Shown here: one piece after another, positions 3-16,017 of the stretch
Numbering within the stretch: position 1 is the first letter of the stretch
Layout of the letters: each line of letters opens with the position of its first letter
NCBI GenBank assembly: GCA_965231035.1
Contig: OZ246409.1
Coordinates: forward strand, 391,101 to 423,100
Direction of reading: 5' to 3'
From: an uncultured Muribaculaceae bacterium
GTDB lineage: Bacteria > Pseudomonadota > Alphaproteobacteria > Rs-D84
DNA: 32,000 nucleotides
Notes under the pieces: generated by a model
Databases searched by the model: none
What the model was told of the DNA's origin: nothing
Seen by the model: only the letters and a program-made list of their open reading frames with translations
Translations under genes and position numbers: made by a program

Positions 3-623
3 TTGCCATTAATTATTACTGATGAAACAATTGAACGCATACGTGGCACTTTACCCGAATTACCATCTGCACGTCGTGCACGTTACATTGGCGAACTAGG
101 ATTATCAGAATATGATTCGGCTCGTTTAACCGAAAGCGTAGAAATTTCCAAATGGTTTGAATCTGCCCTGGGGAATAAACCAGAACGTGCCAAGGCAATC
201 GCAAACTGGATGATTTCAGAACTTTTTGCACACCCGGAAAACTTTGTTTTGGACGAATCGGAACAACGTGATGAATCTATGCGGATAATTACCCCTTCAG
301 ATTTGGCAGAATTGGTAGATATGATTTCCGACGGCGATATAAACGGAAAAATGGCCAAAGACATATTTATCAAAATGTTGGATGGCGAATCTGGGTCACC
401 AAAACAAATCGCTGATAAGTTCGGATTAAAACAAATGTCAGATACAAGTGCAATTGTTGCTGCGGTGAATGATGTCATCGCCAAAAATTCATCCCAGGTT
501 GAACAATATAAAGCTGGAAAAATAGGATTAATTGGATTCTTTGTGGGTGCCGTTATGAAGACAACAAATGGTGCCGCAAATCCCGAAACTGTGAATAAAA
601 TTCTGAGAGAGAAGTTAGGCTAA
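3..623 (+). CDS. gatB: Asp/Glu-tRNA(Asn/Gln) amidotransferase subunit B, C-terminal part (5' end lies outside the window)
   Basis: ORF runs to the window edge. The tail (ANWMISELF...ITPSDLAELVDMISDGDINGKMAKDIF...QYKAGKIGLIGFFVGAVMKTTNGAANPETVNKIL) matches the GatB/YqeY C-terminal domain. Confidence 0.85.
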   Translation: MPLIITDETIERIRGTLPELPSARRARYIGELGLSEYDSARLTESVEISKWFESALGNKPERAKAIANWMISELFAHPENFVLDESEQRDESMRIITPSDLAELVDMISDGDINGKMAKDIFIKMLDGESGSPKQIADKFGLKQMSDTSAIVAAVNDVIAKNSSQVEQYKAGKIGLIGFFVGAVMKTTNGAANPETVNKILREKLG

Positions 624-6406: not shown

Positions 6407-8032
6407 TTATTTATAAAATTCAATCTCTTGCTCACTGAACTTTTCGTACTTACTTGCTATATCAAACAATGTTTGCAGGTTTATGGTGGCTGGTGCGTTG
6501 CCAGACATAATCGTGTTTATAATCTTTGGTGACATATAACAAAGATTTAAATACTTATAAACCGTTCGATGGTCGCGACCCATTTTGGTGGCAAGTTTTC
6601 GGACGGACATTCCATTCTCAATTTCACGTTTATACTTCCAGGCGTATGCCAATGCTCGTACCAGTGTGTTATTATTTTCTGATTTGGTCATTATTAATTT
6701 TTCACCACATTGGTGTTTATAGATAATTGAACTGGTACTGGCGATACTTATTTCTGTTTCAATCACAATATATTTTTCATCATCTGTTAAATAGCAATTT
6801 TCCATTTGATTATTAAATGCATTCATATAATTTTTATCTGTAAATATATCCAAATACTTCAAATCATCAGAGTTTATAAAAATCGTGATTTTATGGTCTT
6901 GATAAATAATCTTATCAATCATTGGGTTTATAATTGCCTCCGTATATTTAATCTGCTTAAACATCAGACGCTTTTCAGATGGCAGAAAGTTCATATCAGA
7001 ATCTAAAAACTGCCGCACAGTGTCAGATACTATTTTATCAATATGTCCCATTGGAATAGAATGCTTGCCAGCGCGATAATATTTGTATTGTTTTATACCT
7101 TTACGCCCAGATGAATTCTTGAACACCGTACCCGAAGTTGTTTGTATTTTATTATTTAATAAAGATGGTGCTCTTTTACAAACTGCATCACCACGATTAT
7201 TATTATTTTTTAATTTTTCTTGAACATTATTAAATAATTCTATATCAAGTATTTCAGGATGTTCGCCTTCAAAAATATCACCACTGGATTTATTTGGTAA
7301 TTTACCAAGAAATATAGGATTGGTCAGAAACCTTTGTAAAATTGATACGCCCATAATGTTGCCACCAATAGTTTTTCCTTTTTCTGTAATCCATTTTTTA
7401 CCATAAATCCCTTGTTCAATTAAACGTAATCTGCAATCAGACAAAGATGATGATTCCAGATAGGTTTCAAATATTTTCCGCACTATTGGAATCTCTGACT
7501 CATTCGGTACCAGCTTGTGAAACTTTATATCGTACCCCATTGGTGGCTTACCACCGACCCACATCCCCTTGGACTTGGTTGCGCGTATTTTATCGCGTAT
7601 ACGTTCGCCAGCAACCTCACGTTCAAACTCTGCAAACGACAGTAACATATTCAGCGTTAATTTACCCATGGCGCTATTGGTGTCAAAACTTTGTGTGATA
7701 CTGACAAGATTACAATTATGTTTATCAAACTCTTTCATCATACTTTTAAAGTCAAAAATACTGCGCGACAATCGGTCAATTTTATAAACCAGAACGCAGT
7801 CAATTCTGCCACTACGAATATCAGTCAGCATTTCTTGTAAAGCGGGTCGCACCATTGTTCCACCAGAAATCGCGGCATCACTGTAAGTTTTAATATATTC
7901 CCAACCTTGGAACGTCTGGGACATAATGTATGCCTTAGCGGCTTGTTCCTGGTTGTCCAATGAATTAAATTCCTGATCCAGGCCATGCTCGCTGGACTTA
8001 CGCACATAAATTGCACATCTTACATTTGCCAT
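6407..8032 (-). CDS. large serine recombinase (resolvase/invertase catalytic domain plus recombinase domain plus long C-terminal extension)
   Basis: N-terminus VRCAIYVRKSS (catalytic Ser region), VLVYKIDRLSRS, EFEREVAGERIRD, then GGKPPMGYD of the recombinase domain; about 540 aa total. The ATG at 8032 (MANVRCAIY) has AAGGA 6 nt upstream; an alternative upstream ATG is at 8056. Confidence 0.85.
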   Translation of the reverse strand: MANVRCAIYVRKSSEHGLDQEFNSLDNQEQAAKAYIMSQTFQGWEYIKTYSDAAISGGTMVRPALQEMLTDIRSGRIDCVLVYKIDRLSRSIFDFKSMMKEFDKHNCNLVSITQSFDTNSAMGKLTLNMLLSFAEFEREVAGERIRDKIRATKSKGMWVGGKPPMGYDIKFHKLVPNESEIPIVRKIFETYLESSSLSDCRLRLIEQGIYGKKWITEKGKTIGGNIMGVSILQRFLTNPIFLGKLPNKSSGDIFEGEHPEILDIELFNNVQEKLKNNNNRGDAVCKRAPSLLNNKIQTTSGTVFKNSSGRKGIKQYKYYRAGKHSIPMGHIDKIVSDTVRQFLDSDMNFLPSEKRLMFKQIKYTEAIINPMIDKIIYQDHKITIFINSDDLKYLDIFTDKNYMNAFNNQMENCYLTDDEKYIVIETEISIASTSSIIYKHQCGEKLIMTKSENNNTLVRALAYAWKYKREIENGMSVRKLATKMGRDHRTVYKYLNLCYMSPKIINTIMSGNAPATINLQTLFDIASKYEKFSEQEIEFYK

Positions 8033-8147
8033 ATTTATCCTTTTGATTATGCCCATTTACGCTCTGTTGGGACGCGAAGTCAAGTCGTTAAAACACTTGA
8101 TTTATAAGGTTTTGTAAGCATTAGTATGTATGTAAAAGAGGCAAGAT

Positions 8148-8471
8148 ATGGATAAAAAGCAACAGCAATATATGGCACAATGTAAAGTTACAGGTTATAA
8201 GATAGAACAAAAGCATTTAAGTAAATTGAATAAGTATTTAAAAGACCCAGATGGTTGTATCGAGCGTTCAATTAAAACAAAATATTATATAAAACCAGGC
8301 ACAAGAATTACGAAAAAATACAAAGGAAAAGAATACATTGTGACAGTGATTTCAGAAAACAAATTTATGTATAAAATGGATACTTTTGAAACACTATCAG
8401 CAGTAGCTGTCGCAATAACCGGCCATAAAGTTTCCGGTTATGAATTCTTTGGTTTTTATAATAAGCATTAA
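8148..8471 (+). CDS. DUF2924-like small protein (common partner of large serine recombinases)
   Basis: C-terminal pattern GTRITKKYKGKEYIVTVISENKFMY...FETLSAVAVAITGHKVSGYEFFGF resembles the DUF2924 signature (GT.l.R.wkG..h.V.v...gf.y.g..y.SLSaiA..ITGt.wsG..FFGl). Divergent from the recombinase gene. Confidence 0.55.
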   Translation: MDKKQQQYMAQCKVTGYKIEQKHLSKLNKYLKDPDGCIERSIKTKYYIKPGTRITKKYKGKEYIVTVISENKFMYKMDTFETLSAVAVAITGHKVSGYEFFGFYNKH

Positions 8472-8538: not shown

Positions 8539-8907
8539 ATGAGCGCAGAAAATATAAATTTTACAGGCAATGATAAATTTTTAGAATTTATAGTAGAAAT
8601 TTGGCGCCTTCCAAAATTATTCAAAAAGCTTATTGCAAAACAAGATTATAGCGAGCAACAAAAATACGTAAGTCAATTCAACTGGTTTAATAAAAAAGCT
8701 CTCGATTTTTTACAAAGTGAAGGACTCTCTTTTCCGGAATATGAAGATATGCCTTTTGATGTGGGTATGCCACTAACACCAATCAACATAGGCGATTTTA
8801 GTTCGGAAGATGAGTTGGTAATTGAACAAATACTGGAACCTGTTATTATGAAAGGTGACAAAATTATCAAAGCTGGCACAGCAATTCTAAAAAAGGCAGA
8901 GAAATGA
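8539..8907 (+). CDS. truncated GrpE-like protein (putative nucleotide exchange factor for the adjacent Hsp70)
   Basis: 122 aa. C-terminal half GLSFPEYEDMPFDVGMPLTPI...ELVIEQILEPVIMKGDKIIKAGTAILKKAEK parallels the GrpE beta-domain (G...G.pFDP..H.A......V..v.q.GY.l.gr.iR.A.V.V.K). The stop overlaps the Hsp70 start (ATGA). SD AAGGAT upstream. Confidence 0.5.
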   Translation: MSAENINFTGNDKFLEFIVEIWRLPKLFKKLIAKQDYSEQQKYVSQFNWFNKKALDFLQSEGLSFPEYEDMPFDVGMPLTPINIGDFSSEDELVIEQILEPVIMKGDKIIKAGTAILKKAEK

Positions 8908-11399
8908 AAAATTTTATCGGAATAGATTTAGGAACAACAAACAGTGCGATATGTTCGTATGACGGTGAACACGTGCGTATTTACAAAAGCCCTGATCAGA
9001 CCGATGTGACACCATCGGCAATTTACATTGATAAGCGTGGTAATAAGTATGTTGGAAAGCGTGCTTATGATTATATACCAAACGATCCTGATAACGTGGC
9101 TGTAAGGTTCAAAAGGCTGATGGGGACAAACACCCCAATAGAAATACCGAACCTAGGCAAGACAATGCTGCCAGAAGAATGCTCTGCCGAAATCTTAAAA
9201 GTTTTATTTAATTATCTGCCAGATGAACTACAAAAAGATCCCGATATAGGCACGATTATAACCACCCCAGCGGCGTTCAATCAGATGCAGAAAGAGGCAA
9301 CCCTGCAAGCAGCAAACATGGCTGGTATCGGGAAAGTTGCGCTTATGCAAGAACCTGTAGCGGCAATCATGAGCGTTATGAAAACGCGCCCTGAAGATGG
9401 GATTTTTCTAGTTTATGACTTAGGCGGCGGCACATTGGATGTCGCTGTAGCGGAAAGTATCAATGGTCATGTAAATTTACAGAGTCATGGCGGTATAGCA
9501 ATGTGTGGCGGGCGTGATTTGGATCGTCTATTGGTGGAAAATGTTGTTTATCCATGGCTTAGATCGAACTTTGATTTATCTTCTGAATTTTGGAATGATC
9601 CGAAATATAAATCGTTGGTACGTTTGGTTGCATATGCAACAGAACGCGCAAAAATAGATTTGTCTGCAAAAGAGGACGCAACAATCAGTCTATCAGAAAA
9701 TGAGGTGCGTATAAAAGATGATAAGAATGCTGATATATATTTGGACATCCCTGTAGATCGTAAAACTTATAACGGACTGATTTCAGAACGAATAGATGAA
9801 ACAATCAAAGCGGTTCGTGAAACCTTAGATAAGGCAGGATTGAAACCCGATGATGTAGTGCGGATTGTTTTTGTAGGTGGCCCGACTTGCTATAAACCGT
9901 TACGTGACAAAGTGTCTTCCGAACTAGGGATTCCAGCAAACACAGACGTAAACCCTATGACTGCAGTTGCTGAAGGTGCAGCTATATTTGCAGAATCAAT
10001 AGAATGGTCTTCACAGGATCGGTCGCGCAAAAACATGCGTGGCTCTGTCGAAGCACAAGGCGTTGTAAATGTAAAATTTGATTTTATCGCAAGAACTCCA
10101 GATGTAAAAACTAAGTTGGTAGTCAAACTGCCGGAAAAGACAAAAGGTAAATTTGAATTTCAGATTGATTCCACCGACTCTGGGTGGTCATCGGGTAAAT
10201 TATCATTGAAAGACGGGGTGACTATAGACTTAGTGCTGTCGAAGTTTGGCGAAAACAATTTTAAGGCATTTTTATTTAACGAAATCGGCGAAAGTATTGC
10301 ACTTGATCCGAATAAAATTGTGATCACACGAACTGCTGCAACAATCGACTCTATTCCGGCATCACATTCTGTCGGTATTGAAGTGTTGGATAAACTTGGC
10401 GGAACACCGATGTTGGATTATATGGTACGTTCTGGCGATACTTTGCCAAAACGCGGCAAGATGCAATTCAAGGCGGCTAACACATTGAAATCTGGTGATA
10501 CAGGCTCATTGAATTTCAAAATATGGGAAGGTGACATTGTGTCACCGATACTGGACAATCGTCTTGTTGGGGTTATGAAAATCACAGGAAAAGATTTTGA
10601 CGATGGGGTTATCCCTGCAGGTGCTGACATAGACCTATCATATGAAATGTCTGACGATGGAAACATACGTCTTGAAATAACGATACCAAGTATTCGTGGC
10701 TCGTTCAACTCTGGTCGAAACTTCTATTCGCGCCAAGAAGGACAACGTGACTATTCTGAAGCACCAGAGGCAATTAAAGAAGACGCAGAGTCTACAAAAT
10801 TACGTGCTGATGAAATGGCGACACATATAAGCGATCCCGAATTAGATAAGACAAGACAAAAACTAGATGAGGCATCATCGATATCCTCAGACGAAGTAGA
10901 TCCAGAAAAGACAAAAGAAGCCGAAGAAAAAGTATTCCAAGCAAAAAAAGATCTTGCCGTTATTCGCAAAAAACACTTGCGTGAAATACGACAGATGGAA
11001 TTAGATAATAAAACAGACTTTTTTAACAAATCCTTGCGCGAACATGCCACACCAGCTGACAAGTCCGCATTTGACAATTTGATAACAAGCGCAAAACGAG
11101 TAATTGATCGTGACACCAATGAATTTGAAGATTTCATAAACGAAATGGGCAGTAAAATTACGTCTGTACTTTGGAAGATGGACTGGTTTATTGTCGCAAA
11201 ATTCAAACATCTTGCTGAAAAACCATTTCTGTTCCAAGACAAGCCAAAGTTTAATATGCTGGTTAAAGAGGGATTAAGTGCAATACAACAGGATGACATT
11301 CCACACCTGCGTCAAGTGGTTGCTGAAATGACAATGATACAAGTTGGTGGCAGTTCAGGAATTGAAGATATGGACATTACAAACATCGTCAGAGGATAA
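8904..11399 (+). CDS. atypical Hsp70/DnaK-family ATPase (831 aa) with an inserted beta-rich module and a long helical C-terminus
   Basis: NBD motifs GIDLGTTNS, ITTPAAFNQMQKEATLQAANMAGI, LMQEPVAAIMS, VYDLGGGTLDVAV, IVFVGGPTCYKPLRDKV and NPMTAVAEGAAIFA. SBD-beta-like SVGIEVLDKLGGTPMLDYMVRSGDTLPKRGKMQFKAANTLKSG...FKIWEGD...IDLSYEMSDDGNIRLEI. Confidence 0.9.
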   Translation: MKNFIGIDLGTTNSAICSYDGEHVRIYKSPDQTDVTPSAIYIDKRGNKYVGKRAYDYIPNDPDNVAVRFKRLMGTNTPIEIPNLGKTMLPEECSAEILKVLFNYLPDELQKDPDIGTIITTPAAFNQMQKEATLQAANMAGIGKVALMQEPVAAIMSVMKTRPEDGIFLVYDLGGGTLDVAVAESINGHVNLQSHGGIAMCGGRDLDRLLVENVVYPWLRSNFDLSSEFWNDPKYKSLVRLVAYATERAKIDLSAKEDATISLSENEVRIKDDKNADIYLDIPVDRKTYNGLISERIDETIKAVRETLDKAGLKPDDVVRIVFVGGPTCYKPLRDKVSSELGIPANTDVNPMTAVAEGAAIFAESIEWSSQDRSRKNMRGSVEAQGVVNVKFDFIARTPDVKTKLVVKLPEKTKGKFEFQIDSTDSGWSSGKLSLKDGVTIDLVLSKFGENNFKAFLFNEIGESIALDPNKIVITRTAATIDSIPASHSVGIEVLDKLGGTPMLDYMVRSGDTLPKRGKMQFKAANTLKSGDTGSLNFKIWEGDIVSPILDNRLVGVMKITGKDFDDGVIPAGADIDLSYEMSDDGNIRLEITIPSIRGSFNSGRNFYSRQEGQRDYSEAPEAIKEDAESTKLRADEMATHISDPELDKTRQKLDEASSISSDEVDPEKTKEAEEKVFQAKKDLAVIRKKHLREIRQMELDNKTDFFNKSLREHATPADKSAFDNLITSAKRVIDRDTNEFEDFINEMGSKITSVLWKMDWFIVAKFKHLAEKPFLFQDKPKFNMLVKEGLSAIQQDDIPHLRQVVAEMTMIQVGGSSGIEDMDITNIVRG

Positions 11400-11402
11400 G
11401 CA

Positions 11403-12824
11403 ATGAAAAAAGATCCATGGTTCCCGAAAGAATATGAACCAACAAAAGGCGTGGTAGCAAAGTCCATGGTTTTTGTTGGCGACAAATGGCAGATATATAG
11501 ATTGGCTGACGGACAAAATATGCTGGTCGTTCGACCAGATTTGGCCGCTCTTTGGGAATCTAAAAAGCTTCTAGGTAAATCTATTTTAACCACCATAAAG
11601 TTTGGGGGAGAAGAGTTCAAGTTCTTAGTTTCTTCAGACAGATACATTCTTGCCCCGATTGATTACAACTTTTTCGCTGTAAATAAAGTCACAGCATTGG
11701 CATTTGCCACCGCACTTCGTGAATCGCGCAAGATTATGTCAGATATTTCATTCGAAGATTCTTTGTACACAGAACAATTTTCACGATTACTTCCAACCTC
11801 AGAATTACAGCAGGAAACCGATGATGGACTGTTGCTTGGAACTTGGTTGACTGGAGGTGTTCCCGTTTCAACAAAATCAATCCGTAGATTACAGAATTTG
11901 ACTTTGAACTTTTCTATGGGCGATCTTGAAGAAATCATTGAAGATGCCGGATTAACAGTACCAACAGTAAAAGGTGTGACGAAGAGTGCACCTAACAGTA
12001 CCGAGAAAGTAAAACAAAAAAGCGACAAATTTATATTGACCGGTGCAGAATATCTTGAACAATTTTTTAATGAAAATGTTGTAGATATTGTATTAAATCC
12101 CGAACGATATGAAGCTATGGGGATTTCATTTCCATCACCGATAATTTTGTATGGTAAACCAGGAACAGGAAAAACATACGCGGTCGAAAAATTGGCAGAG
12201 TTCTTGGATTGGCCAGTTTATTCAATTGATTCTGGAAGTGTCGGTAGCCCGTACATACACCAAACTGCGCAGAAAATATCAGCAACTTTCAATAAAGCAT
12301 TTGAAACATCACCAGCAATTGTAATAATTGATGAAATGGAATCTTTCTTGGGTAAACGTGAAGGTTCGCAAGATCATAAGGTGGAAGAAGTTGGCGAATT
12401 TTTGCGACTGATTCCCGAAGCGGCAAAAAATAAGGTGCTGGTTGTCGGTATGACCAATCTTCTTCAAAACATAGACCCTGCAATTTTACGAACAGGACGT
12501 TTTGATCACAAGATAGAAGTACGTATGCCAAGCAAAGAAGATATCAAAACAATGCTGGAAACCGCACTTGCTAAATTACCTGTGGAAGATGGAATTGTAT
12601 TAGATAAAATTGTAGATGCGCTGGTTGATCGTCCAAGATCGGATATCGCATTCATTGTAAAAGAAGCTGCACGTCTGACAGCATTCAAAAATAAAAGCAA
12701 AATATCACAAGAAGAGATGGATGCCTCCCTGCAGACAAAAACAATCAGTGCGGACATAGAACCAAAAAGAAGAACGATAGGTTTCACAGCAGCATCAGAA
12801 ACAAAAACAAAAGAAGACAAATAA
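11403..12824 (+). CDS. classical-clade AAA+ ATPase with an uncharacterised N-terminal domain of about 240 aa
   Basis: Walker A GKPGTGKT (12153-12176), Walker B IVIIDEMES (12321-12341), sensor-1/SRH VVGMTNLLQNIDPAILRTGRFDHKIEV, and lid RPRSDIAFIVKEAARLTAF. Starts 3 nt after the Hsp70 stop. Confidence 0.9.
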   Translation: MKKDPWFPKEYEPTKGVVAKSMVFVGDKWQIYRLADGQNMLVVRPDLAALWESKKLLGKSILTTIKFGGEEFKFLVSSDRYILAPIDYNFFAVNKVTALAFATALRESRKIMSDISFEDSLYTEQFSRLLPTSELQQETDDGLLLGTWLTGGVPVSTKSIRRLQNLTLNFSMGDLEEIIEDAGLTVPTVKGVTKSAPNSTEKVKQKSDKFILTGAEYLEQFFNENVVDIVLNPERYEAMGISFPSPIILYGKPGTGKTYAVEKLAEFLDWPVYSIDSGSVGSPYIHQTAQKISATFNKAFETSPAIVIIDEMESFLGKREGSQDHKVEEVGEFLRLIPEAAKNKVLVVGMTNLLQNIDPAILRTGRFDHKIEVRMPSKEDIKTMLETALAKLPVEDGIVLDKIVDALVDRPRSDIAFIVKEAARLTAFKNKSKISQEEMDASLQTKTISADIEPKRRTIGFTAASETKTKEDK

Positions 12825-12825
12825 C

Positions 12826-14577
12826 ATGAACATACTCCAGAACCCTTTCTACATCCTAGGTGCGACCCCTCGTGATAACCGACAGAAAATTATGGAATTG
12901 TCACAGGAAAAAAGTTTGAGCCTAGATCAATCAGTAGTAACAGAGACGCGATTGATACTTACCACACCACGGAAACGTATAATGGCCGAGATTGCATGGC
13001 TCCCAGGTGTAAGTAATAAAAAGGCACTGGAGCTGATAAAATCATTAAATGGTGCGATAATAGAACAGGACGCTATTTCAAGTTTGCCTGCACTGGCCGG
13101 TCTTAACGTTGTGACCACAATGCTATCTATAATGCAAAAAGCGGTGATACCACAAAAGAATGTTTCTGATATACTTTACAAGATGGCTGTTGATTTCGAA
13201 AGTATTGATACAGAAAAGCTTATAAGAATTCTAAATGAAGATCGCGCGGTCGCAGGTATTTCAGAAATCACAGATATCGCAGCTGTTGATTCAGATTTAC
13301 ATGAGCACAAGCTGACCTGTGTAAAAACAATTCAAGCCTTTTTGCAAAACTACACACAAAAACAAATTACAGCAACCATGTTGTCACTTGTGAATAAAGC
13401 TGTAAAAAATGGGCAAAAGTTGAGTCTAATTGATAGCTTTATAGACAATTTATACGCAATGGAAGTTCAGAAAGGACTACAAAAACTAGAAGATTCAATT
13501 GAAGCGTCTCGGCAGAAGATAAAAACAGGTTTGTCGAAAAAAAATCGCTCGAAAACATATATGACCGGACTGGTAGATGAATTTTTAAAAGAACTAGAAA
13601 ATTTTGATGAAATTATGCAACCTATACAGGTAAGTATGCAACAACGTGGTTTAGAGCACGAGGAAACAAAACATGTTGCAGATGAAGCCCGTGAATGTGC
13701 CATTGATTTGGTTCGAGCAGACGAGATGGAATTGTCGGAAAAAGTACTTTATAAAGTAAAAGAACTTTTTTCAGAACTTGGTTCTGTCGATGATCGTTCT
13801 ATAAGAGATCTGAATGATTTAGAAAATATCAAAAACCAGAATAGGCAACATGCCAAAGATATAACTTGCAAGATTGAGCAAAATGGATTTTGGAGCAACC
13901 ATTCTTTTGAAATTTCAGCAAATGGTATTAAAGTAGACGGAGAGTTAATTTGTAAACTAGAAAACATAAATGCAATACGTTATGGAATTACAAGAAAAAG
14001 CACGAATGGAGTTTATAGTGGAACGGATACTTTATTGGCATTTTCAACATCAGAAAATGAAACAATAATTAACTGGTTGGATCACAGTTCAAATTGGACA
14101 AAGGCTGCGGATTGTTTATGGAAGGCTGTTGGACCTCGTTTAGTTTTTGCGATGGCAAATGAACTAGCGCGTGGTGGAAATATATATGAAATAATTTATG
14201 ACAATAAAGTAAAGCTTGCAAAAACAAATACTTGGACTCCAGTCGAAGAAAAGTTTTTTAAATGGTCCGAAGTAAAAACCATGGTTGTTCAAGGTCAATT
14301 TATAATAGCTGCAAAAGATGGATCCGGATTTATGGCAACATTATCTCTTCAAGATATAGATAACGTACATGTAGCAGAAGCACTTATAAATGTATTTTTT
14401 AATACAGGTGGAACAAATATAAGTCAAGCATTCGGAATAACAAAAGAAGCTGCCAAAAAAGAAAAAAGAATTAAACTTAGCACACCAGTAAGCTTAGTTA
14501 ATTATTCGTTTTTGTGGTCTTGGTTCTGGGTTGTTTTTATAGGGGTTTTTTTGATAGTTTGGGCAGCAAATTCTTGA
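12826..14577 (+). CDS. tail-anchored protein with a J-domain-like N-terminus (no HPD), coiled-coil middle and C-terminal TM helix
   Basis: N-terminus NPFYILGATPRDNRQKIMELSQEKS...ETRLILTTPRKRIMAEI resembles J-domain helices II and III (DYYEILGV....eIkkAY..L / ayevLsdp.kR..YD), but no His-Pro-Asp is present. C-terminus LVNYSFLWSWFWVVFIGVFLIVWAANS is hydrophobic. Starts 1 nt after the AAA+ stop. Confidence 0.6.
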   Translation: MNILQNPFYILGATPRDNRQKIMELSQEKSLSLDQSVVTETRLILTTPRKRIMAEIAWLPGVSNKKALELIKSLNGAIIEQDAISSLPALAGLNVVTTMLSIMQKAVIPQKNVSDILYKMAVDFESIDTEKLIRILNEDRAVAGISEITDIAAVDSDLHEHKLTCVKTIQAFLQNYTQKQITATMLSLVNKAVKNGQKLSLIDSFIDNLYAMEVQKGLQKLEDSIEASRQKIKTGLSKKNRSKTYMTGLVDEFLKELENFDEIMQPIQVSMQQRGLEHEETKHVADEARECAIDLVRADEMELSEKVLYKVKELFSELGSVDDRSIRDLNDLENIKNQNRQHAKDITCKIEQNGFWSNHSFEISANGIKVDGELICKLENINAIRYGITRKSTNGVYSGTDTLLAFSTSENETIINWLDHSSNWTKAADCLWKAVGPRLVFAMANELARGGNIYEIIYDNKVKLAKTNTWTPVEEKFFKWSEVKTMVVQGQFIIAAKDGSGFMATLSLQDIDNVHVAEALINVFFNTGGTNISQAFGITKEAAKKEKRIKLSTPVSLVNYSFLWSWFWVVFIGVFLIVWAANS

Positions 14578-14594: not shown

Positions 14595-14888
14595 ATGAAT
14601 AAAAAAACATATTTAATATTGGCTTGTATTTTGCTGAGTATAGCGTTGTTACCTTTACCTTATGGTTATTATCAAATTTTAAGATTAGTAATTTTTATTT
14701 TGTCTGTTTGGATATTGATAGATAGTAATAATAAAGAAATAAGTTTACCAATCGGATTATTTATTACAGCAATTATTTATAACCCAATTTATATTATTCA
14801 TTTTGAAAAATCTGTATGGTCTTTATTTAACATTATTACATTAATTTATTTTATTTATCTGATATCACACAATAAACATAATGCATAA
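14595..14888 (+). CDS. small integral membrane protein (about 3 TM segments)
   Basis: 97 aa, with three hydrophobic stretches (YLILACILLSIALLPL, ILRLVIFILSVWILI, LFNIITLIYFIYLI) and a PYGYYQILRLV motif. Lies 17 nt after the preceding stop on the same strand. Confidence 0.55.
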   Translation: MNKKTYLILACILLSIALLPLPYGYYQILRLVIFILSVWILIDSNNKEISLPIGLFITAIIYNPIYIIHFEKSVWSLFNIITLIYFIYLISHNKHNA

Positions 14889-15495: not shown

Positions 15496-16017
15496 ATGAA
15501 CAAAACTTTTGTATTACTAAAACAACTTTTTAACTTTAAACCAACAATAATAAAACAGGAGTATGAACTAAAAAACGATACAAATATAAATAATAAAAAA
15601 ATTTCCAAGTACCACAGTGTATCATACGAAGAACTTCGAGAAAATACTTTCGTTGAACTTTTTCTTGAAGAAAAATTCAATAAAGTTCAAGAAATAAACC
15701 TTGTATATTCGGAAATACAAACTTTATTATATCTTAAAGAAGACGTATCTAAACAGTTAGTTCAGAAATTAAAAGAATCTCTGGAAAAATATGAAAGAAT
15801 CGATTGGCCAGCCGTTAAATCTGTAACGAAAAAAGCAACTCCAACTCGTACAGTTTTAACCCATTTCAATTTTATCAAGAGAACACTTCAGATGTCACAC
15901 GAGCTTTACTCGGATATAAAACAAACTGAAATGGCAAGGGCACAAGAAATTTACACAATGGTTGATATTAGAAAAAGGAATATAGTTTCATCTTGGGTTC
16001 CCTCTATGAGTATGTAG
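15496..16017 (+). CDS. hypothetical protein (173 aa)
   Basis: Strong SD (TTAGGAGGGAAAACATATG) and a GC-rich terminator follows. No family recognised. Confidence 0.55.
   Translation: MNKTFVLLKQLFNFKPTIIKQEYELKNDTNINNKKISKYHSVSYEELRENTFVELFLEEKFNKVQEINLVYSEIQTLLYLKEDVSKQLVQKLKESLEKYERIDWPAVKSVTKKATPTRTVLTHFNFIKRTLQMSHELYSDIKQTEMARAQEIYTMVDIRKRNIVSSWVPSMSM

Follow-up and report, generated by a model that had tools for sequence, protein, structure and literature searches.

The operon and its fourth gene

The window analysed here is a stretch of 32,000 nucleotides (nt) of contig OZ246409.1 (assembly GCA_965231035.1, positions 391,101 to 423,100 of the forward strand), and the gene in question is the fourth of five co-directional, closely packed genes located at 8539-8907, 8904-11399, 11403-12824, 12826-14577 and 14595-14888. 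This fourth gene encodes a protein of 583 amino acids (aa) whose N-terminus very probably adopts the fold of a J domain, as judged from its model, and lacks the His-Pro-Asp (HPD) motif; its operon partners are a small GrpE-like protein, an Hsp70-like ATPase, an AAA+ ATPase and a DUF6804 membrane protein. The Hsp70-like gene (starting at 8904) overlaps the GrpE-like gene (ending at 8907) by 4 nt, and the operon is translationally coupled. The initial annotation had set the J-like gene beside that of the Hsp70; the AAA+ gene (11403-12824) lies between the two. The features of the operon are as follows, with NBD standing for the nucleotide-binding domain and SBD-beta for the beta part of the substrate-binding domain.

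12826-14577, forward strand: J-like adaptor protein, 583 aa; open reading frame (ORF) and translation, 143 homologues, all named hypothetical, AlphaFold2 model with a mean predicted local distance difference test (pLDDT) of 93.5
12826-13011, forward strand: J-like domain, residues 1-62, four helices, a KSLSLD loop replacing HPD; Foldseek, hhalign against controls, loop count over 254 domains
13012-13863, forward strand: helical middle module, residues 63-346, helical hairpins/solenoid; DSSP, accompanies the J-like domain in 85 of 86 long representatives
13864-14460, forward strand: beta-rich C-terminal region, residues 347-545, two beta sub-domains with a helix after each, variable; DSSP
14503-14571, forward strand: C-terminal transmembrane (TM) tail anchor, residues 560-582; hydropathy windows starting at 560-563, model helix 561-582
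8539-8907, forward strand: small GrpE-like protein, 122 aa, putative nucleotide-exchange factor; conserved first gene, sub-threshold Pfam GrpE match
8904-11399, forward strand: Hsp70-like ATPase, 831 aa, with NBD, insertion of ~110 aa, linker-like segment, SBD-beta and helical C-terminus; Pfam HSP70, 3.9e-51
11403-12824, forward strand: AAA+ ATPase, 473 aa, N-domain (1-220) and one Cdc48/VAT-like AAA domain; Pfam AAA, 5e-29
14595-14888, forward strand: small polytopic membrane protein of 97 aa (DUF6804), found as the fifth gene in the clade with a TM tail; Pfam DUF6804, 3e-17

Regarding the extent of the fourth gene, its ORF opens with an ATG codon placed 1 nt past the stop of the upstream AAA+ gene, and the gene call on record (P0001, 531 aa) begins instead at M53, so that most of the J-like domain is lost. 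Residues 1-61 are the best-conserved portion of the family, with F8, L11, L31, R51, E55 and W58 invariant among 80 aligned homologues, and for this reason the full 583-aa ORF is regarded as the real product; the N-terminal sequence quoted in the initial annotation (residues 5-60 or so) agrees with its translation. The database entries P0087, P0094 and P0120 are likewise shortened at the N-terminus. On the practical side of annotation, gene calls starting at M53 can hide the J-like domain.

The N-terminal J-like domain

The structure of residues 1-72 was modelled with AlphaFold2 from an alignment of 48 sequences, giving a model with a pLDDT of 86 and helices at 7-11, 19-29, 35-46 and 48-57, arranged in a compact four-helix fold with an antiparallel hairpin of helices II and III. 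When this model was searched with Foldseek against 350,542 PDB chains, the best 50 matches listed were J domains, almost without exception; they included those of Sis1, Thermus thermophilus DnaJ, DNAJA1, DNAJB8, CbpA and Ydj1, along with 5nro_B, which is the J domain bound to DnaK. These J-domain matches had probabilities of 0.9-0.99 and TM-scores of 0.5-0.62, with the best root-mean-square deviations at 2.1-2.6 Å over ~61 residues. Modelling residues 1-72 on their own was necessary to see the fold, which Foldseek missed with the full-length model.

As for the profile comparison, hhalign aligned the N-terminal domain with a J-domain alignment at a score of 23-24 (P ~3-5e-4), and the controls were clearly lower: 200 column-shuffled J alignments scored 9.9 ± 2.2 (maximum 19.3), the reversed alignment 10.2, and no window entirely outside residues 1-48 exceeded 13, which puts the domain ~6 standard deviations (SD) over the shuffled alignments. 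In this alignment, residues invariant in the J-like family are matched to conserved core positions of J domains, namely F8/Y7, L11/L10, G12/G11, A41/A53, L45/L57, K50/K62, R51/R63 and E55/D67; helices II and III are shorter than in J domains, with a gap of 13 residues. The helix II/III pattern initially claimed for residues 5-60 is borne out by both Foldseek and hhalign, the latter above its controls. The whole 583-aa protein had no match in Pfam, NCBIfam, PADLOC or the PDB sequences. From the model and these comparisons, residues 1-62 very likely have the J fold, and it probably stems from remote homology.

The loop between helices II and III differs from that of J domains. None of the 254 unique family domains has HPD, which confirms the earlier observation that the invariant motif is missing, with SLSLDQ in its place; the family consensus is (K/R)-S-L-x-(L/I)-D, read as KSLSLD in the window, with L31 present in 245 of the 254 domains and D34 in 234, so that of HPD only an Asp is retained. 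Over the same set, helix II bears acidic residues in its second half (E24, E/D27, E28), and in the hhalign alignment the positions of DnaJ R22, K26 and R27 are occupied by M/V23, E/D27 and E28; the basic face of helix II is thus left without a counterpart.

The J-docking surface of the cognate Hsp70

In the DnaK-DnaJ complex, D35 of HPD contacts R167 and Q378 of DnaK, H33 the carbonyl of L391, and P34 packs on P419, while DnaJ R22, K26, R27, K48 and K51 pair with DnaK E206, D211, E217 and D477 (Mayer 2021, PMC8215388). The equivalent positions were read from an alignment of 64 members of the Hsp70-like family with Escherichia coli DnaK, in which the NBD motifs can be matched without ambiguity. 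None of the catalytic and phosphate-binding residues varies among the 64 members (D8, G10, T11, N13, K70, R71, P143, E171, D194, T199 and D201), and those contacting the J domain are largely replaced: R167 by Ala in 62 of 64, N170 by Gln and T173 by Val in all of them, and D326 by Lys in 58. Family-wide, D208 is deleted, D211 is changed into Gly, Ser or Ala, and E217 into Asn, Ser or Thr; the change of Q378 into Phe is seen in the Hsp70-like protein of the window only. Retained positions are P419, D393 and 477, the last with an acidic residue.

This pattern amounts to a reciprocal change in the two proteins, because the HPD receptor and the acidic patch are lost from the Hsp70, helix II of the J-like domain is acidic, and position 326 is basic. 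A specific partnership of the J-like protein with its cognate Hsp70 appears likely. The suggestion that the two proteins form a co-evolved pair with private recognition at the membrane is supported by the J fold, the absence of HPD and the near-obligate synteny with the Hsp70 gene, as well as by the rewritten docking residues, the acidic helix II, the Hsp70 fusions and the recurrent membrane attachment, the last two described below.

Remainder of the protein and modularity of the family

The full-length AlphaFold2 model, built from 80 sequences, had a pLDDT of 93.5 and a predicted TM-score of 0.73, and its DSSP assignment ran from helical hairpins, which end at residue 346, through a beta-rich part (348-507) to a last helix at 561-582. 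The long coiled-coil-like segments and the globular region (~350-540) of the earlier description correspond in this model to the long helices of the hairpins and to the beta-rich part. The terminal helix is the sole strongly hydrophobic window of the protein, and since only S583 follows it, the protein is considered tail-anchored. The single hydrophobic helix already reported at the end of the protein stands for the window (560-582) and does not extend to the family, as the TM tail is restricted to the clade of ~580 aa (13 of 30 aligned homologues).

The full-length model was also searched with Foldseek against the PDB and viral structures; the helical-repeat matches, of the TPR/SNAP type, were all non-significant, and the beta-rich C-terminal region had no fold match. 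Within residues 63-346, the best viral fold matches were repeats of the soluble NSF attachment protein (SNAP) type, also non-significant. Proteins of the SNAP family serve an AAA+ ATPase as adaptors; in the modelled module, the likeness is probably a generic similarity of helical hairpins.

Regarding the size of the family, 1436 clusters (50% identity) among 1.84 billion representatives matched the profile of the N-terminal domain at E ≤ 1e-3, and for 923 of these the E-value was 1e-10 or lower. The J-like domain and the helical module (1-346) are constant in 85 of 86 long representatives, and the beta-rich region occurs in just 37 of them; at the C-terminus it is swapped for ankyrin repeats, an SF1 helicase, or a TM segment with the periplasmic domain otherwise found in the fifth gene (9-10 representatives). 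The ankyrin variant, with its repeats after a TM segment, is still within the cassette at locus L088, and a TM segment after residue 340 is present in 33 of the 86 representatives. In many Proteobacterial members a zinc ribbon (CxxC...CxxC) opens an extension of ~120 aa ahead of the J-like domain (P0081, P0084, P0099, P0231; L035:7596-9620).

Three single ORFs fuse Hsp70 and J-like parts. P0259 (1078 aa) joins a canonical-type Hsp70 (PF00012, 2e-197) to the J-like protein, P0231 has an Hsp70 C-terminus, a zinc ribbon and the J-like protein, and P0193 combines an NBD of the cassette type with the J-like protein. In residues 2-514 of P0259, the RIINEP of DnaK reads RIIDAS, with Ala instead of the catalytic E171 and with R167 kept; by its sequence, this Hsp70 part may be an inactive DnaK paralogue acting as a docking module.

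The other products of the operon

The 831-aa Hsp70-like protein matches Pfam HSP70 (3.9e-51) over residues 5-364, and its best PDB match is DnaK 2v7y (1e-50). A beta-rich insertion of ~110 aa occupies residues ~370-490, between the NBD and the linker-like segment IVITRTAATID, followed by the SBD-beta and by a helical C-terminus of ~200 aa. The altered linker noted in the initial annotation is better described as this insertion, placed ahead of a linker and an SBD-beta that are still recognisable.

As for the small protein encoded by the first gene, Pfam GrpE is the only family matched by several members (8 of 21, best E-value 0.0045), and a comparison with the single E. coli GrpE sequence by hhalign aligned it to GrpE 121-195 at a non-significant P of 0.24. 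On these sequence matches it is probably a short GrpE, reduced to the C-terminal bundle and the beta domain.

The AAA+ protein has VAT (3.5e-52) and Cdc48 (9e-48) as PDB matches, and its translation contains a Walker A motif (GKPGTGKT), a Walker B motif (IIDEME) and an aromatic pore-loop residue. It also matches the IetA models of PADLOC (4e-27) and NCBIfam (3.5e-24), the latter with 85.6 bits against a cut-off of 510 bits. The DUF6804 gene is found at the same place in L005, L006 and L008. Finally, no PF00226 protein is encoded in the operon of the window or in the cassettes examined, so that no HPD-bearing J partner is available within them.

Distribution and genomic context

Relatives of the J-like protein occur in 172 of 185,579 species genomes (one genome per species), sporadically and across many phyla: Pseudomonadota, Desulfobacterota, Acidobacteriota, Bacteroidota, Clostridia, Verrucomicrobiota, Planctomycetota, Nitrospirota, Actinomycetota and others. 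The nearest relative, with 63% identity, comes from a metagenome-assembled genome of the Muribaculaceae (Bacteroidota). The order small gene, Hsp70-like, AAA+, J-like is kept in nearly all of the 86 loci with enough flanking sequence, which come from more than 10 phyla, and the fifth gene sits before or after the J-like gene.

In most clades this fifth gene encodes a bitopic membrane protein with a cytoplasmic N-terminal motif GFSGLSxLxSxV, one TM segment and a conserved periplasmic domain, followed by variable ends with PG_binding_1 or OmpA-like domains or repeats; the periplasmic-domain partner is carried by 68 loci, and in the clade with the TM tail DUF6804 takes its place. In the window, a tail-anchored J-like protein shares its operon with a dedicated Hsp70, the tail being a trait of the clade. 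Examples of the partner are found at L001:11667-12680, L013:10449-11909, L035:5853-7571 and L035:10811-11863, and its periplasmic domain displays the motif KPxVGxNxVLSxxEIRWCxRExIRxEA...YNxRCGSYRYR. Some cassettes hold two such membrane proteins with differing periplasmic parts, and J-like proteins of 548 aa end in ..GGDRLSSLL, which resembles the GFSGLSxLxSxV motif. In the zinc-ribbon clade, with J-like proteins of ~674 aa, the operon is extended by a 214-aa protein starting with MGFLSNLFGG, by hypothetical proteins and by an RDD-family membrane protein; a Pfam scan gave no match for the extra conserved genes of this clade (L035:9651-10295, in the same position in ~14 other loci, and L089:10641-14448).

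In the window, the cassette belongs to an island of ~10 kb with a serine recombinase and a DUF2924 gene at one end; the sequence outside 6395 and 16070 contains housekeeping genes:

6407-8056, reverse strand: large serine recombinase, edge of the cassette island; Pfam Resolvase (6.7e-38) and Recombinase
8148-8471, forward strand: DUF2924 protein; Pfam DUF2924, 1.4e-16

DUF2924 proteins are the usual companions of large serine recombinases. The island sits between a GNAT acetyltransferase gene and a pyruvate phosphate dikinase gene, and its far end contains a 173-aa ORF (15496-16017) without a family match.

Elsewhere, the neighbours of the cassette include BREX PglZ/BrxL, as well as type I restriction-modification (RM) with McrBC; a further cassette lies in a P2-like prophage by the tail genes, with an EcoRI-type methylase and a phospholipase D (PLD) protein. 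A sample of 141 flanking ORFs included HamA (Hachiman), a CBASS cyclase, type I specificity subunits, integrases and resolvases. On the Aeromonas caviae IncP plasmid pKAM471_1 (L089), the cassette is directly downstream of TnsD/TnsE of a Tn7-like transposon, which makes it the cargo of a transposon carried by a mobilisable plasmid, and its J-like protein is a hypothetical protein in RefSeq; the Hsp70 gene of this locus is annotated in two pieces, of 546 aa and 200 aa, possibly owing to a frameshift. Overall, the cassette is located in defence islands and mobile elements and is spread sporadically across phyla. Pfam, NCBIfam and PADLOC lack a model for the J-like protein, RefSeq likewise leaves the cassette unannotated, and no description of the cassette or of DUF6804 was found in the literature.

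Proposed role and alternatives

In the 583-aa protein, the J-like domain is joined to the helical module (63-346), and a variable part, a sensor or an anchor, makes up the C-terminus; in the window, this part consists of the beta-rich region and the tail anchor. With a probability of roughly 60%, this protein is a membrane-tethered targeting subunit, a co-chaperone of the J type, in a private machine made of Hsp70, GrpE-like and Cdc48-like AAA+ proteins and encoded by a mobile five-gene cassette. The output of this machine would most likely be protection against phages or mobile elements, because of the genomic context; that the cassette serves in defence is about an even bet.

Several results weigh against this reading and are considered here with the alternatives. 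Regarding the fold, the individual Foldseek E-values of the N-terminal model are only 0.3-3, because the domain is small, and the hhalign probability is just 30-39%; moreover, the J-domain reference alignment and the E. coli DnaK and GrpE sequences were entered by hand. The profile search proposed as a check of the J domain failed with HMMER, as none of the 48 N-terminal domains matched PF00226 at E ≤ 10 and a HMMER profile made from them matched no PDB chain, and was only suggestive with hhalign, while the structure search succeeded in returning J domains. Such data would also be compatible with a small helical bundle that arose by convergence, used for oligomerisation or for binding the N-domain of the AAA+ protein, its link to the Hsp70 being merely operonic; that the profile drew only 1436 clusters from 1.84 billion proteins, with canonical J proteins not pulled in en masse, and that hhalign finds shortened helices II and III and a gap of 13 residues, go in the same direction. 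This explanation is highly improbable in view of the best 50 listed structural neighbours, almost all J domains among 350,542 chains, of the eight conserved core positions that coincide, of the hhalign score ~6 SD above the shuffles, and of a J fold encoded with an Hsp70 and a GrpE-like gene, at times fused to the Hsp70, which is unlike chance.

A second set of objections concerns the activity. H33 and P34 of HPD are essential in every J protein tested (PMC8215388), and for this reason the J-like domain may only tether or regulate, with ATPase stimulation left as a proposal; in addition, the GrpE assignment is built on sub-threshold matches. The J-like protein could accordingly resemble Pam16/Tim16 and position or restrain the Hsp70-like ATPase at the membrane without triggering hydrolysis, which would be driven by the client, by the inserted Hsp70 domain or by the AAA+ partner. 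HPD is missing in 254 of 254 domains and is needed for stimulation in all tested systems (PMC8215388), R167 and Q378, the partners of D35, are gone from the Hsp70, and the ~110-aa insertion precedes the Hsp70 linker, all of which suits a regulator. However, the cassette has no second, HPD-bearing J protein to be regulated, the surface on which a host DnaJ would dock is erased from this Hsp70, and L31 and D34 are nearly invariant, as for a functional trigger, so that a mere regulator or tether is rather unlikely.

As for the defence role, the neighbours cited above are anecdotal examples, no homologue was detected in 50,697 phage records, the cassette is absent from PADLOC 2.0, in which only the AAA domain is matched, and no recognisable effector enzyme (nuclease, protease or NADase) is encoded in the cassette. 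The last two results also speak for a mobile module for envelope proteostasis, membrane-protein handling or stress, comparable to HscC with DjlB/DjlC, that would chaperone or extract membrane or periplasm-spanning proteins and give a fitness gain unrelated to phage; the logic of HscC and DjlC, a specialised Hsp70 encoded together with tail-anchored J proteins (PMC8215388), is alike, and the partners bear peptidoglycan-binding or OmpA-like periplasmic domains. Such a module fits poorly with the sporadic spread over 172 of 185,579 species genomes and several phyla, with carriage by a serine-recombinase island, a P2-like prophage, a Tn7-like element and plasmids, with the proximity to BREX, RM, McrBC, Hachiman and CBASS genes, and with C-terminal modules, the SF1 helicase included, that are swapped like immune sensors; it is slightly less probable than the regulator.

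Returning to the co-chaperone reading, the J-like protein would work as a class-C-like co-chaperone held on the inner side of the membrane. Via the acidic helix II and the L31/D34 loop, its J-like domain would dock on the remodelled face of its own Hsp70 formed by NBD, linker and SBD-beta, and would avoid the housekeeping DnaK; docking might couple client binding to ATP hydrolysis, or at least bring the Hsp70 to the inner side of the membrane. Resetting of the Hsp70 would fall to the GrpE-like protein, and threading and unfolding of the captured polypeptide to the Cdc48-like AAA+ ring. Likely clients or inputs could be the GFSGLSxLxSxV cytoplasmic tails of the bitopic periplasmic or peptidoglycan-binding partners, or phage proteins, and the outcome could be an invader protein unfolded or a membrane-acting effector released.

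A bolder and more doubtful version, offered tentatively, is an immune system made wholly of chaperone parts, in which the membrane-tethered, HPD-less J adaptor would sense infection through swappable modules, C-terminal or periplasmic, and fire a private unfoldase made of Hsp70, GrpE-like and Cdc48-like proteins by a non-HPD trigger, the L31/D34 loop with the acidic helix II, docking on the rewritten surface of the Hsp70. If true, a second, orthogonal route of signalling from J proteins to Hsp70 would exist, insulated from the housekeeping DnaK network. HPD is regarded as indispensable, and a J fold without it persists in at least 1,400 sequence clusters; its dedicated Hsp70 has lost precisely the residues by which HPD and helix II are read and has kept its catalytic residues intact. 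The family is in this sense a natural experiment on how the allostery from J domain to Hsp70 can be rewired and insulated from the housekeeping network. As a candidate anti-phage mechanism based on chaperones, the cassette is concrete and can be cloned, and it offers orthogonal Hsp70/J pairs for synthetic biology.

Comparison with known systems

The closest parallel in organisation is HscC of E. coli with the tail-anchored DjlB and DjlC, a specialised Hsp70 beside its own class-C J proteins (PMC8215388). In both cases, a dedicated, non-housekeeping Hsp70 is encoded with a protein that has a J or J-like N-terminus, a long middle part and a tail anchored in the inner membrane. The differences are several: DjlB and DjlC contain a canonical HPD and match PF00226, neither of which holds for the protein of the window; HscC is a short Hsp70 without insertion, whereas the Hsp70-like protein has 831 aa with the ~110-aa insertion and a long helical C-terminus; and the HscC locus is chromosomal, not mobile, and has no dedicated GrpE-like or AAA+ gene.

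Proteins of the Pam16/Tim16 type ("type IV" J-like) also keep the J fold, have lost HPD and work within an Hsp70 machine at a membrane. Unlike the J-like protein, Pam16 pairs with a true J protein, Pam18, and with a canonical Hsp70, while the cassette has no HPD-bearing partner and the receptor surface of its Hsp70 is changed; no sequence relationship was detected between the J-like family and Pam16/Tim16.

In its set of components, the cassette recalls DnaK-DnaJ-GrpE with ClpB: in both, an Hsp70 is combined with a J-type co-chaperone, an exchange factor of the GrpE type and an AAA+ protein that threads substrates. However, ClpB has two rings and an M-domain, and the AAA+ protein of the cassette has a single Cdc48/VAT-like domain with an N-domain of 220 aa; furthermore, the parts of the cassette are divergent, linked to the membrane and carried on mobile elements, unlike those of the DnaK/ClpB bi-chaperone system, and its clients are probably specific rather than aggregates.

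Among defence systems, IetAS shares with the cassette an AAA+ protein that matches the IetA models and the defence-type contexts. The cassette differs in lacking an IetS-like protease, the match is that of a generic classic-clade AAA domain, and the Hsp70, J-like and GrpE-like proteins are not part of IetAS; membership was rejected, since no protease gene is present in the cassette and the IetA match is under the cut-off. CoCoNuT type III, with its Hsp70-like CnuD, and the GTPase/tubulin/HSP70 conflict systems (Kaur et al.) were rejected as well, because they have different partners (McrBC and GTPases) and no AAA+/J-like cassette; fusions of EACC1 proteases with DnaK-like proteins are unrelated.

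In conclusion, the five-gene cassette probably forms an Hsp70/J system of a known kind, with a non-HPD J module.

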